59,872 bases of DNA from Stx2-converting phage Stx2a_F349. This document shows, in pieces, positions 45,001 through 51,000 of the stretch (positions are counted from its first letter, which is position 1; each line of letters begins with the position of its first letter). A program made the position numbers. The DNA lies in the sequence record AP012530. The stretch is one strand, 5' to 3'.

Positions 45001-48000
45001 GCCTCAGATAATGAAGGACGAACACGGGCGGCGCTGACAGAGCAGAACCGACTGATTGATGAACAGGCCAGTCGGGTGAAATCCCTGCAGGAAAAAATCG
45101 CAGGATATCAGTATGTTCTGGCGAACCCGGGCTGGACGACCGGTGACGGATTCATGATAAACCATCTGACCTCGGTGAAGACCGTAACGGAAGGGCTTGC
45201 TCAGGCAACAGAGCAGCTTGCCGTTGAGCAGTCCCGTCTGGCACAGATGCAGGAAAAAGCGCAGTCCATTCAGGATGTGCTTGCCGGGCTGGAAGACCGT
45301 CGTGTGGCGTTAATTCGTCAGCAGGCGGCAGAGCAGAATAAGGTGTACCAGTCCATGCTGGTTATGAACGGTCAGCATACGGAATTCAACCGTCTGCTGG
45401 GGCTGGGTAATGAACTGCTTCAGCAGCGGCAGGGACTGGTGAATGTGCCGTTACGGCTGCCACAGGCCACTCTGGATGATAAACAGCAGAGTGCCCTGAC
45501 AAAAACAGAGCGTGAGCTGGCCCTGTCCAGACTGAAAGGGGAAGAAAAAGAGCGTGCCCGGCTGGGGTATGCGGCGGATGACCTTGGTTTTGTGGGGGAT
45601 TCGTATCAGGAGGCGAGACAGCGTTATATCAGTAATGCTCTGGAAGCCTGGCGTAATAACGAGGCGAACAAACCTAAATCCCGGGGTGGAAAATCAGAGA
45701 CGGAAAAAGCGGAAGACAGTTTTTCCCGGCTACTGAAGCAGCAGAAAGAGCAACTGGCACTGGCGGGTCAGAATACAGAGCTGGCGAAGCTGAAGTACCA
45801 GACTGCGCAGGGCGAACTGAAAACCCTGACGGAGATGCAGAAGCAGGAACTGCTGCGTAACGCGGCCCTGATTGACCAGCAAAAAATCCGGGAACAGTTG
45901 CGATCCCGGGAAGAGACCCTGAAGAATGATAATGTGGCTGCGCGTGCATCAAATGAAGCCGAACTGCTGGGATACGGGCAGGGAGAACGAGCCAGGGAAC
46001 GCATGCGGGAGTTGCAGCAGATCCGCGACAGCTTCCGCCAGAAGGATGCGGACCTTCAGTCTCAGTATCAGACCGGGGATATCAGTGAGGATTTTTACAG
46101 ACAGGCTCTGGCACAGAACGCGCAGTATCTGAGCGAACGCCTTAAGGACCAGGCAGTCTTTTATGCCGAATCGGATGTGCAGCGTGCGGACTGGCAGAAA
46201 GGGCTGCAGGAGGGATTCAGTAACTGGGTGGATAATGCGTCCGATTACGCCTCACAGGCAGCACAGCTGGCGACGGAGGGTATCTCAGGGATGGTGAATA
46301 ACATCACGGAGATGCTGAACGGAAATAAAGTGGAATGGCGCAGCTGGGCCTCATCAGTGCTGCAGGAAATATCAAAAGTTCTTATGAATGCCGCGATTGT
46401 CAACGGAATTAAGACGGCGGCAAACGGTATGTCCGGTGCGGGAGGATTTCTCGGCAGCATTGGTGACTGGCTGGGCGGAGCGGTGGCCAATGCAAAAGGC
46501 GGCGTGTATACCTCGGCAAACCTGAGCGCGTACAGCAACAGCATTGTGGACACGCCCACGTACTTTGCGTTTGCAAAAGGGGCCGGGCTGATGGGGGAAG
46601 CCGGACCTGAAGCTATTATGCCCCTGACCCGGGCGGCGGATGGCTCGCTGGGCGTACGCGCCGTGGGCAGTATGAACGGCAGTGCTGGTCTGGTGTATTC
46701 CCCGGTCTACCACATCGCCATTCAGAATGACGGGGCTAACGGACAGATAGGGCCGGAGGCGGCAGGCAGTCTTGTGCAGCTGATTGACCAGCGGGTGCAG
46801 GCGGTGATGCTGTCCATGCGACGTGACGGAGGAATGCTGAGTGGCTGAGATAAAAACGCTGCATCTGGTCCCGCGTGAAGGGATGCAGGTGAGTGAGAAG
46901 CCGTCGGTGGTGAGGGTGCGGTTTGGTGACGGTTATGAACAGCGCCGCCCCACAGGGCTGAATCCTCAACTGAAGACGTTTCAGGCGGTGTTCCGGGTGA
47001 CGGATGAGTCAACCCGGCGCTGGCTGGATGAATTTTTATCCTGGCATGGTGGTTACCGTGCCTTTTTGTGGCGACCGCCGAAACATAACCGGACGGTGAG
47101 GGTTGTGTGCCGGGAGTGGAGCGTCACGGATAACGCCCGGTACAGTGATTTCAGCTGTACGATTGAGCAGGTGGTGAACTGATGCAGGACATTCATGAAG
47201 AAAGTCTGAACGAGTCGGTTAAATCAGAGCAGTCACCGCGGGTGGTGCTCTGGGAAATTGACCTGACGGTGCAGGGCGGTGAGCGGTATTTTTTCTGTAA
47301 TGAGCTGAATGAAAAAGGGGAGGCGGTCACCTGGCAGGGGCGGGAATATCAGGCATACCCGATTGACGGCAGCGGTTTTGAGATGAACGGGAAGGGCAGC
47401 AGTGCCCGCCCGTCGCTGACGGTGTCGAATCTGTTCGGTCTGGTCACCGGAATGGCGGAGGACCTGCAGAGCCTGGTGGGGGCCACGGTGGTCCGCCGCC
47501 GGGTGTATGCCCGTTTTCTGGATGCGGTGAATTTTGTGGCGGGCAATCCGGAAGCGGACCCGGAGCAGGAGCTGAGAGACCGCTGGGTGGTGGAGCAGAT
47601 GTCAGAGCTGACGGCCATGACAGCCTCGTTTGTGCTGGCAACACCGACGGAGACGGACGGGGCGCTGTTTCCCGGTCGCATTATGCTGGCGAACACCTGT
47701 ATGTGGGATTACCGGGGAGATGAATGCGGGTATAACGGTCCTGCGGTGGCGGATGAGTTCGATAAACCCACCACGGATATCCGTAAGGACAGATGCAGCA
47801 AGTGCATGCGCGGGTGTGAGATGCGCGGCATGGTGGCTAATTTTGGCGGTTTCCTTTCCATTAATAAACTTTCGCAGTAATGGATTATGCCCACCGTCAG
47901 GTGGGTTTTTTATTTAGTAGTTCTCTCAACTTTTCGTTCTGCTCTCTGAACTTTTCCTGTATTTCTTTTTGCATGGCGATAACCTGGGCTTGAAGTTGAA

Positions 48001-51000
48001 CTAGCGCATCAACATTTAGCGGAACCGAGACGCTGTTAATTTTATCTGCTATTTCCCCGAGTGTATTTTCTGCATTCAAGGCATCTTCCAGTATCTGAAC
48101 AATCTCTGAGTTCATAGAGCGCCCGTTTCGTTTGGCTCGTTCAGCTATAGCATCTCGCATTCCGTCAGGAAAACGGAGGTTGAACTTGTCGTAGTCTTTT
48201 ACTTGTTTTTCGGCCATTGCAAATCTCTCAAAAAAAATCATGGTGCCATATTGCCATACGATTTCAATGGTGGCATTATGGCCTTCATGGCGTCACTTTG
48301 GCACCAAATAAAGGAGATTAGATAATGCAAGATACACTTTTCACTGAGCGCAAAAATATCAAACTCAACCTTCGCCTTCCATCACGGCTGAATGAAGACC
48401 TTCGCCGCCTGGCGGAAATGGACTGTATATCTCTGAACTCTGCAATTGTTCGTTTGCTGGCAAAAGGTGTTAGGGAAGAGGTGGCGAATGGTCGCTAAAA
48501 ACAGCGAAGCCTCAATGGCTGCAACCATTGAGGCTTCTAAATTACCAGTTAACCACGAGAAAACTGATATGACTAGTTTAGCAATTGCAGATCGCACAAT
48601 CAATGTTCCATTCCACGGAACAAATCTCTTTTTGGTTGGAATTAACAATGAGCCTTATGTTCCTATGAAGCCTGTTGTTGAAGGTATGGGGATGGTTTGG
48701 GCTGCTCAATTTGTTAAGTTAAAACAGAGGTTTGTCAAAGGTATTTCGGAAATCGAAATACCTTCTGCTGGCGGTAAACAGTTAATGACATGTCTTGCCT
48801 TTCGTAAATTTGCGGCTTGGCTTTCAAGCATTCAACCAAACAAAGTCCGCCCTGAAATCCGCGACAAGGTAATCCAGTATCAGGAAGAGTGTGACGATGT
48901 GCTCTACGAGTACTGGACTAAAGGCCATGTGATTAACCCGCGCAAAGCTAAAAAGGCATTGCCGGGGAAAATCACCACTGAACAGCAGGAAGCCATTAAA
49001 CAACTCGTCATGAGTCGCGGTCAGTCTCTGCCAAAAGAAAAACAGGCGAAGGCGATGATCACCATGTGGTCGTCACTGAAATCTCATTTTGGGTGTTCAT
49101 ACAAAGAAATCAGCGAGGAGCAGTTTACCGAAGCTCTGTCACTTGCTGCTCGCGTTCCGCTTGAAGGAGAGTTAATCGGCAAACAAGAGAAGAGCACCAA
49201 CGAGCTTTCCGCAAAAGAAGCAAACAGCCTTGTATGGCTATGGGATTATGCCAACCGCTCACAGGCATTATTCCGCGAACTGTATCCGGCGCTAAAACAA
49301 ATTCAATCGAACTATTCCGGCAGATGCTACGACTACGGTCATGAGTTCTCGTATGTTATTGGAATGGCGAGAGACGTTTTAATTAATCACACACGAGATG
49401 TTGATATCAATGAGCCAGACGGACCAACGAATCTTTCCGCATGGATGAGACTTAAGAATAAAGAATTACCTCCTTCACCGCATCACTACTAACAGATTGC
49501 CAACGAAATGACCCAGCTTCGGCTGGGTTTTTATCAGGAGTTCTCATGCTCTATAGCAATATATTGGCGCACGCCCGGCGATGTGCACCAGCGGAGTCGT
49601 GCGGCTTCGTGGTGAGAACGCCGGAAGGGGAAAGATATTTTCCCTGCGTGAATATCTCCGGTGAGCCGGAAGATTATTTCCGGATGTCGCCGGAGGACTG
49701 GCTGCGGGCAGAAATGCAGGGGGAGATTGTGGCACTGGTCCACAGTCATCCCGGTGGTCTGCCCTGGCTGAGCGAGGCCGACCGGCGGCTGCAGATAAAA
49801 AGTGCACTGTCCTGGTGGCTGGTCTGCCGGGGGGAAATTCATAAATTCCGCTGTGTGCCACATCTGACAGGACGGCGCTTTGAGCACGGGGTGACGGACT
49901 GTTACACGCTGTTCCGGGATGCCTACCATCTGGCGGGAATTGATATGCCGGATTTTGAGCGTGAGGATGACTGGTGGCGTAACGGTCAGAACCTTTACCT
50001 GGACAATATGGCGGTCACCGGCTTTTACCGGGTGCCCCTGTCCTCTGCACAGGCGGGCGATATCCTGCTGTGCTGCTTTGGCGCATCGGTGGCCAATCAT
50101 GCCGCCATATACTGCGGCAACGGTGAACTGCTTCACCATCTGCCTGAACAACTGAGTAAACGGGAGAGGTATTCCGAAAAATGGCAACGACGAACGCATT
50201 CAGCCTGGCGTCACCGCCACTGGCACGTATCTGCCTTCACGGGGATTTACAACGATTTGGCCGCCGCCTCAGCCTGTATGTGAACACGGCAGCGGAAGCC
50301 ATCCGTGCCCTGTCGATGCAGATGCCGGGATTCCGCCGTCAGATGAACGAAGGCTGGTACCAGATACGTATTGCCGGTGATGACACGGCACCGGAGGCGG
50401 TGTACGCCCGTCTTCACGAACAGCTGGGTGAGGGAACGGTCATCCACATTGTGCCGCGACTGGCCGGGGCCGGAAAGGGTGGACTGCAGATTGTGCTGGG
50501 GGCGGCGGCCATCGTGGGGTCGTTCTTCACGGCCGGGGCATCAATGGCGTTATGGGGTTCAGCCCTGGCAGCCGGTGGTTTTTCTGCCACCACGATGCTG
50601 TTTTCACTGGGGGCCAGCATGATACTGGGCGGTGTGGCCCAGATGCTGGCACCGAAGGCAAAAACACCGGATTACCGCGCAACGGATAACGGCAGACAGA
50701 ACACGTACTTTTCCTCACTGGACAACATGATTGCTCAGGGGAACCCGATGCCGGTGCCTTACGGTGAAATGCTGGTTGGCTCACGGCGAATCTCCCAGGA
50801 CATCAGTACCCGTGATGAAGGCGGTGACGGGAAGGTGGTGGTTATCGGGCGGCAGGCATAAAAGCGAAAAAATCCCGCAGTGACCGAAGGCTGCGGGAAC
50901 AGAAAATGAAGATTAACCACAGGGAGTTTTGTTTTTATTGGCCCGAAAAAACTGTAACGCCCGGGAATGATATCTGCCACGGGGGCGTACAGAAAATGTG

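Follow-up and report, generated by a model that had tools for sequence, protein, structure and literature searches.

The immI region of phage P22 comprises the repressors Mnt and Arc, the sar RNA, and the antirepressor Ant (PMC2629481, PMC8022706), and it is located within the late operon, with gene 16/sieA on one side and the tailspike gene on the other (PMC8022706; PMC2629481). Under the name of "ant morons," inserts of this kind have already been described for P22-like phages (PMC2629481). Here, we describe such a locus in the Stx2-converting phage Stx2a_F349 (sequence record AP012530; 59,872 nucleotides, referred to below as the window), where an mnt-like gene, an arc-like gene, and an antirepressor gene lie between the tail genes L and K. 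Our results indicate, with a probability that we put at about 0.78, that this cassette is a self-contained P22 immI-type ant moron with promoters and terminators of its own, inserted between L and K, and that it would operate a P22-like circuit. The L-K cassette is a real element of a known kind, and all three of its genes are already annotated in RefSeq, where two entries named "Arc family DNA-binding protein" and one named "phage antirepressor Ant" are flanked by "phage minor tail protein L" and "C40 family peptidase." New here are the precise limits of the insert, a sar-like RNA together with its putative promoter, the evidence for an origin in the nin region, the rebuilt start of K, and the range of slots in which the cassette is found; our literature searches found no paper discussing the L-K antirepressor cassette specifically.

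The correspondence with P22 immI can be followed from component to component. The gene order and the strands are the same, an Mnt-type and an Arc-type ribbon-helix-helix (RHH) protein accompany an Ant with both P22_AR domains, the divergent promoter candidates overlap, the space between arc and ant holds a putative antisense RNA of two stem-loops whose promoter would sit in the first ant codons, a terminator follows ant, and the whole is placed among virion genes inside the late operon. A preliminary description of this DNA, made from the sequence alone, had proposed a P22 immI-like module between L and K, and the component-by-component homology together with the Pfam assignments of the two flanking genes bears this out. 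It had also singled out the placement inside the tail operon, which is correct but not unusual, as P22 immI is itself inside a late operon. The differences from P22 lie in the setting and in the details of the regulators. The carrier here is a lambda-like siphovirus with stx2c, and the slot is L-K instead of gene 16-gene 9, with neither sieA nor orf59a present. The Mnt-like protein has 106 amino acids (aa) compared to 83 aa for P22 Mnt, and its C-terminal half is unrelated; the β-strand triad is K-N-R in both RHH proteins here, compared to H-N-R in Mnt and Q-N-R in Arc, and the candidate operator sequences differ.

The antirepressor matches P22_AR_N (E value of 1.3e-39) and P22_AR_C (1.6e-29) in Pfam as well as PHROG 245, "anti-repressor Ant" (2e-108), and it shares 56% identity with P22 Ant over 315 residues (4e-118). 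The identity that had been proposed for it thus stands, and it gave no match to a structural tail component. Of the domains for which a profile search had been suggested, the Arc/Mnt RHH family was matched by the two small proteins, whereas KilA-N/Bro-N was not found in Ant, which has P22_AR_N in its place; it is sister variants of the cassette that have Bro-N. A sequence search of the PDB with Ant returned no solved relative. The ant reading frame opens at 48446, and the ATG at 48569 is the start of both the homology to P22 Ant and the RefSeq model. A longer version starting at 48488, which overlaps arc and is annotated in phage JLK-2012, was rejected since the P22 homology, RefSeq, the sar hairpin, and the Psar -10 element all fit 48569. 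The resident CI of the phage is an HTH-S24 (helix-turn-helix) repressor of the P22 C2/lambda CI type, with 37% identity to P22 C2. Susskind and Botstein are said to have established in 1975 that C2/CI-type repressors are the class inactivated by P22 Ant, and by analogy, the cassette Ant would inactivate CI-type repressors.

Both RHH proteins score above the Pfam threshold for Arc, in agreement with the preliminary description of a minus-strand Mnt-like and a 57-aa Arc-like RHH protein, and all three genes were recovered as open reading frames (ORFs) with Pfam support where it had placed them. For the Mnt-like protein, the match to Arc (PF03869) reaches 72.9 bits (E value of 1.8e-20), the identity to P22 Mnt is 50% in the RHH region, and a sequence search of the PDB returned Arc, AmrZ, and Mnt chains with E values of 6e-9 to 1e-7 (1mnt, 1.4e-7). 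Its gene is on the opposite strand, 107 bp upstream of the arc-like gene. A single-sequence AlphaFold2 (AF2) model with a predicted local distance difference test score (pLDDT) of 64, read for the order of secondary structure only, has helices at residues 20 to 30, 37 to 62, and 69 to 102, and in this low-confidence model the C terminus is one long helix (69 to 102) with a heptad pattern by eye. A 114-aa version of the protein, starting at 48241 (ORF 47897..48241), was rejected; the ATG at 48217 is backed by the starts in PHROG and RefSeq. The Arc-like protein passes the Pfam Arc model narrowly (22.1 bits, against a gathering score of 20.4) and shares 30% identity with P22 Arc (pairwise BLASTP E value of 7e-6). 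Its AF2 model (pLDDT of 76) has an extended N terminus followed by helices at residues 22 to 31 and 34 to 56, an order of elements that fits strand-helix-helix. The ratio of nonsynonymous to synonymous substitution rates (dN/dS) is 0.12 to 0.22 for ant, about 0.2 for the mnt-like gene, and 0.05 for the arc-like gene in comparison with phage S135, indicating purifying selection on all three genes. Judging from the sequence, the L-K cassette is probably functional.

The preliminary description had not noticed that a sar-like RNA lies between arc and ant. The Rfam model for sar (RF00262) matches 48503-48569 on the minus strand with 29.5 bits (E value of 0.0024), and the element is thus diverged compared to that of P22, which scores 97.8 bits. 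At the same position, the scores are 69.4 bits in the L-K cassette of phage PhiR12_1, which is above the gathering score, 48.0 in Salmonella phage S135, and 32.1 in Edwardsiella phage GF-2; divergent members of the family are unannotated because they fall below the Rfam threshold. In the window, the element folds with -30.9 kcal/mol (z of -6.2), its 5' stem-loop is complementary to the ribosome-binding site and start of ant, and its U-run overlaps the arc stop codon. When 12 variants were folded, the terminator hairpin formed in all of them and was accompanied by the 5' stem-loop in 10; the exceptions were the L083 piece, which is cut short and gave the hairpin only, and GF-2, in which a short outer helix is added to the fold. 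We aligned 13 sequences with MAFFT and derived a covariance model from them. Of the 80 IMG/VR loci with the mnt-like gene, 79 gave a full-length match to this model on the mnt strand, the element in the remaining locus being cut by the contig end.

The terminator hairpin also shows covariation. It is 96.7% paired in the MAFFT alignment, with five pairs changed on both sides, and in a model-fitted alignment of 34 distinct sequences, which leans towards the structure, 8 of 14 pairs have compensatory changes and 97.9% of the cells are paired. None of 500 shuffles reached the observed score, and partners slid sideways paired at 53% or less. This covariation covers the terminator hairpin; helix 1 is out of register between variants in the MAFFT alignment and is seen by the per-sequence folds. 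All 28 G-U pairs fall on the antisense strand and none on the ant-mRNA strand, which argues that the structure is selected in the antisense transcript. The Psar-like extended -10 element follows the pattern TGnTAnAnT, which occupies the equivalent position in no fewer than 10 of the 12 variants (P22, PhiR12_1, S135, and GF-2 among them), with an Ant of either the P22_AR_N or the Bro-N type, and it coincides with the annotated position of Psar in P22. On this evidence, the putative sar element and its promoter travel with the control cassette. One IMG/VR contig (L080) has two sar-like elements (1306-1386 and 3604-3681) located 2.3 kb apart, which implies two tandem modules of the mnt/arc/ant type.

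The region between the two RHH genes holds candidates for the divergent promoters and their operators. The -35 element of each promoter candidate overlaps the -10 element of the other, as annotated for Pant and Pmnt of P22, and this geometry is kept in four intergenic variants; an alternative Pmnt was given by the promoter scan at 48304..48275. TGGCA/TGCCA occurs four times in the control region. In all variants with the K-N-R β-strand in the Mnt-like protein, the motif (A/G)TGGTG is found three times, spaced 27 and 19 bp apart; it is replaced by ATGATG in the variant with a K-V-R strand. Both repeats are candidate operator half-sites.

The cassette core (47882-49532; 1651 bp) is of low GC content, with 42 to 48% in the insert compared to 55 to 65% in the flanking tail genes, of which L, M, K, and I were confirmed by Pfam. 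The claim that it is an insertion was supported by synteny with the relative Stx1_EH1995 (L003), where L and K lie next to each other: the L stop codon and the K ATG are separated by 5 bp, and the window stretch from 47881 to 49564 has no homologous counterpart there. The hairpin that had been taken for the terminator of L (t1) is missing from this insert-free phage and therefore belongs to the insert instead of the tail operon. Its loop contains the mnt-like stop codon. The insertion also replaced the start of K, whose N terminus now reads MLYSNILAHA instead of MTQTESAILAHA. The segment that contributes this new start is identical across all E. coli-type L-K inserts, and both junctions are exactly common to all of them (those among the 80 IMG/VR loci and that of phage PhiR12_1), which suggests that they go back to one ancestral insertion. 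The L-K slot of a distant lineage (L084, with 69% identity in L and 63% in K over the compared segments) is also occupied by an antirepressor cassette, but with different junctions.

Absence from close relatives, promoter candidates and terminators of its own, and a deviant base composition are features that the cassette shares with the morons of lambdoid phages, the independently transcribed inserts in late operons, a concept credited to Juhala and Hendrix. Unlike in those morons, the cargo here would be a regulatory module against phage repressors and not a gene for host fitness or lysogenic conversion.

Table 1. Positions of the cassette features and of the flanking tail genes in the window
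Feature	Position	Strand	Evidence
Tail gene L (left neighbor, outside the insert)	47182..47880	+	Pfam Phage_tail_L PF05100, E value of 1.1e-91
Left insert edge, 10-nt GGATTATGCC, vestige of the interior of an ant gene	47882..47891	+	Recurrence of the 10-mer, comparison with JLK-2012
Intrinsic terminator t1, 7-bp GC-rich stem and T-run (hairpin 47889-47906)	47889..47912	+	Terminator scan; fold of -13.4 kcal/mol, z of -4.6
mnt-like gene, 106 aa; N-terminal RHH, then a predicted long C-terminal helix with heptad pattern	47897..48217	-	Pfam, PDB hits, identity to P22 Mnt, same coordinates in RefSeq
Divergent control region; TGGCA/TGCCA and (A/G)TGGTG repeats as candidate operators	48218..48324	.	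Inverted repeats I1 and I2; direct repeats D1 and D2
Pmnt candidate, ATGCCA-17-TGgCAATAT, mirror of Pant	48248..48276	-	Inferred from inverted repeat I2
Pant candidate, TTGCCA-17-TGgCATTAT (extended -10)	48251..48279	+	Promoter scan, 9/12 matches with TG
arc-like gene, 57-aa RHH protein, first gene of the ant operon	48325..48498	+	Pfam, BLASTP, AF2
sar-like antisense RNA, ~72 nt; 5' stem-loop, 14-bp terminator hairpin (48537..48506), and U-run	48497..48568	-	Rfam, folding, covariation
ant, antirepressor, 307 aa, P22_AR_N and P22_AR_C	48569..49492	+	Pfam, PHROG, P22 homology, same start in RefSeq
Psar-like extended -10, TGCTAAACT, inside the first ant codons	48575..48583	-	Conserved TGnTAnAnT
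Intrinsic terminator t2, 3' of ant; right edge of the shared cassette (49532); hairpin 49511-49528 and T-run	49511..49533	+	Terminator scan; fold of -14.0 kcal/mol, z of -4.7
Junction segment; new K ribosome-binding site (CAGGAG) and new first K codons	49533..49564	+	Comparison with insert-free Stx1_EH1995
Tail gene K (right neighbor)	49546..50283	+	Pfam Prok-JAB and NLPC_P60; RefSeq "C40 family peptidase"

Where the tail-operon copy came from is suggested by phage JLK-2012, which has the same core at 98.1% identity. There, the cassette does not lie in the tail operon but in the nin region, with ninE and roi on its two sides and placed in a truncated ant gene that runs up to GGATTATGCC and is followed by the same hairpin and the mnt gene (L002 5990-6012); the homology stops at 49532. 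Elsewhere in the window, GGATTATGCC occurs only at 20612-20621, in the ant gene of the nin region, and at 49243-49252, in the cassette ant. Since the left edge of the insert is the exact end point of the truncated ant gene of JLK-2012, the tail-operon copy most likely derives from a nin-type arrangement. The ant gene in the nin region of the window (20097-20861) is a second Ant-type gene, encoding ORF6N and P22_AR_C domains, three tandem 10-aa repeats, and a C-terminal stretch of 104 residues that is 82% identical to the tail-operon Ant. It ends in the same terminator hairpin as the cassette ant and is followed by roi (ANT/KilAC domain; 20930-21658), so that the phage has three antirepressor-family genes.

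The remainder of the phage has a lambdoid layout, with an HTH-S24-class CI, cro, cII, O/P-like genes, a nin region, Q, stx2c, and then lambda-like tail genes. The stretch from 47100 to 50300 is 99.8% identical to Stx2-converting phage 1717 (NC_011357; Stx2c converting) and 98 to 99% identical to other E. coli O157:H7 Stx2c, Stx1a, and Stx2a phages, including 2851, YYZ-2008, and Stx2a_WGPS4/6/8. This stretch was contained, at a coverage of at least 80%, in 266 of 5426 complete E. coli genomes (about 5%). In NC_011357, ISEc8 is annotated at 14876-17317, just downstream of the replicative helicase gene (window positions of about 14220 to 16661). Gene K has 582 nt as annotated in the phage 1717 record (L001 5448-6029) compared to 738 nt in the window and in the RefSeq genomes. 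The window and phage 1717 differ by 2 bases of indel over 47100-50300, and the short K in the 1717 record is likely a frameshift or a sequencing difference.

Two further observations were made at the start of K. The new 5' end of K contains TATAGCAAT, as do the 5' ends of ant genes. On the minus strand (49503-49587), a promoter-like TGCACA-18-TATATT (49587..49558) precedes the ant terminator hairpin read backwards (49528..49511), antisense to the rebuilt K ribosome-binding site and ATG. This layout loosely resembles the sar arrangement and is weak, with 9/12 promoter matches, a fold z of -2.2, and an invariant sequence. As a weaker possibility, this site and hairpin may form another antisense unit, facing the new start of K, that ties the synthesis of the tail tip to the state of the cassette.

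The L-K position is one of several in which the cassette occurs. Among the 80 IMG/VR loci, it was found in the lambda-type L-K slot (with L-like matches of 70 to 98% identity), the nin region, the Q-lysis slot, the P22-type slot between gene 16 and the tailspike gene, and among the sheath and baseplate genes of myoviruses, as in phage GF-2. The Q-lysis variant (L068 to L074) has the Q antiterminator gene on one side and the holin/endolysin genes on the other, the slot that is occupied by the stx genes in Stx phages. The L-K cassette of PhiR12_1 has the same left and right junctions, the same middle and C-terminal part of ant, and a sar that reaches the Rfam level, but it differs in having other Mnt- and Arc-type proteins, a Bro-N domain at the N terminus of Ant, and an extra ClpP-like gene. 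This gene (L006 1275-1811) lies downstream of the mnt-like gene and encodes a 178-aa protein with a Pfam CLP_protease match (E value of 1.6e-11). Domain shuffling among antirepressors is reportedly known from the work of Iyer, Koonin, and Aravind in 2002, the source of the Pfam families.

The circuit that we infer for the cassette follows what is generally known from the work of Susskind, Sauer, and McClure on P22, and it is by this analogy that promoters, operators, repressor roles, Ant targets, and read-through are assigned. In the lysogen, the Mnt-like RHH repressor, expressed from the leftward promoter and probably oligomerized through its C-terminal helix, would keep Pant shut so that no antirepressor is made. 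After infection or upon loss of Mnt, Pant would fire and arc and ant would be transcribed. Ant would then bind CI/C2-type repressors noncovalently and inactivate them, possible targets being the repressor of the carrier phage itself or the repressors of lambdoid prophages in the same cell, and Arc would close Pant again and thereby limit Ant to a transient burst. Once Pant is quiet and convergent transcription has ended, the sar-like RNA would be made from the promoter in the first ant codons and would pair with the ant ribosome-binding site and start, blocking the translation of Ant, also from message that reads through from the late operon. During lytic growth, Q-modified RNA polymerase would pass both terminators of the cassette, which would allow the expression of K, I, and J to continue.

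A different wiring is known for the small antirepressors GfoA, GfhA, and GftA of the Gifsy prophages, Tum of 186, and AntC of N15. They, too, inactivate a phage repressor by binding it, but they are unrelated proteins and are controlled through a LexA box, in contrast to the Mnt/Arc-type RHH proteins and antisense RNA seen here. These antirepressors can act in trans on other prophages (PMC3121763). No LexA box (CTGT-N8-ACAG) was found in 47882-49564, and the sole site in the window is at 3540. SOS control of the Gifsy/Tum type was therefore rejected for the cassette, which is not wired to the SOS response in the way that the Gifsy, 186, and N15 antirepressors are (PMC3121763).

Several points weigh against a functional circuit of the P22 kind. 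Past residue 48, the Mnt-like protein has no sequence similarity to the tetramerization domain of Mnt, and its structural model is of low confidence; fold searches with the monomer model of the 57-aa Arc-like protein gave nothing meaningful. The sar-like element of the window is below the Rfam gathering score (29.5 versus 43 bits). In the control region, several repeat families were found, none of which can be assigned to Mnt or Arc with confidence from sequence, and the clean palindrome that P22 and several other variants have downstream of the Pant -10 element is not present. The resident CI has an S24 self-cleavage domain, which means that SOS induction does not require Ant. No mnt transcripts were detected in the lysogen of a P22-like coliphage that has an mnt-arc-ant locus (PMC12922286), showing that the regulation in relatives can depart from the P22 textbook case.

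Other readings of the same locus differ in where they place its function. It is possible, and we would hold it only tentatively, that the cassette is mainly an offensive or cross-talk device, with Ant made upon infection or Mnt loss inactivating the repressors of heteroimmune resident prophages instead of controlling the lysogeny of its carrier. E. coli O157 has many lambdoid prophages, Stx phages among them, and the O157 genomes listed have L/K-like matches in 9 to 15 places per genome, indicating that several lambda-like tail modules, presumably prophages, co-reside. P22 Ant acts on the repressors of other phages, and a carrier that already has a cleavable CI, a second Ant-type gene, and roi does not obviously need an Ant in its tail operon for its own induction. 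It also fits that trans-acting antirepressors coordinate prophage induction in Salmonella (PMC3121763). However, this reading differs from a P22-like circuit in emphasis and not in mechanism. The sequence gives no clue to binding specificity, and P22 has the same tight three layers of repression (Mnt, Arc, and sar) in a module that controls, among other things, the immunity of its own phage. We consider it improbable that the effect on the tail operon is what has been selected, with two terminators and convergent mnt transcription attenuating K-I-J and setting the dose of the tail tip and with the immunity genes as passengers. The L-K junction does now contain two strong intrinsic terminators, the insert gave K another ribosome-binding site and other first codons, a weak promoter-like site and hairpin lie antisense to the K start, and the ant moron of P22 is thought to modulate tailspike expression through the control of read-through (PMC2629481). 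However, the same cassette is also found outside tail operons, in the nin region and the Q-lysis slot, most relatives lack the insert yet still build tails, and purifying selection acts on sar and on each of the three genes in its own right.

Two more readings concern decay and the database names of the RHH proteins. That it is a decaying, nonfunctional remnant carried along by tail-module recombination is very unlikely: degraded ant morons are frequent in P22-like phages (PMC2629481) and the left edge bears a fragment of another ant gene, but the three ORFs are intact and match the RefSeq models, their dN/dS values are 0.05 to 0.22, the promoter, sar, and terminator elements are conserved, and the cassette is near-identical in the complete E. 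coli genomes that contain it. Hardly credible is the idea that the RHH proteins are antitoxins or partition proteins, which can be traced to database names. The source records call the 57-aa protein "Arc family DNA-binding protein," while some of its homologues are named "HicB family antitoxin" (NCBI), there are weak subthreshold Pfam HicB matches, and PHROG 795 and 2685 are labeled "partition protein ATPase." Yet HicB scores below its gathering score where Arc scores above, no ORF for a toxin or a ParA-type partner is present, the neighbors being only ant, L, and K, and the "partition" label is also the product name of P22 mnt in its RefSeq record.

The preferred reading, a P22 immI-type ant moron in the tail operon, extends the concept of ant morons from P22-like podoviruses to the tail operons of lambda-like phages and myoviruses. 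A broader view is that mnt, arc, sar, and the first ant codons form a portable control unit that has been placed on several antirepressor bodies (P22_AR_N and Bro-N) and in at least five phage slots and that the O157 L-K copy is a trans-acting master switch over co-resident CI repressors, including those of Stx phages. We regard this as rather unlikely, but if true, the loss of Mnt or infection by a cassette-carrying phage would change the amount of toxin made and the spread of the phages by a route separate from the SOS response. The induction of Stx prophages controls the release of Shiga toxin, and the repressors of O157 prophages might be inactivated by Ant in trans. A cassette that has no LexA box and is present in prototype Stx2c and Stx1a phages would therefore offer a plausible route to SOS-independent induction and to cross-talk between prophages, and its practical relevance would rise if Ant cross-induces Stx prophages.

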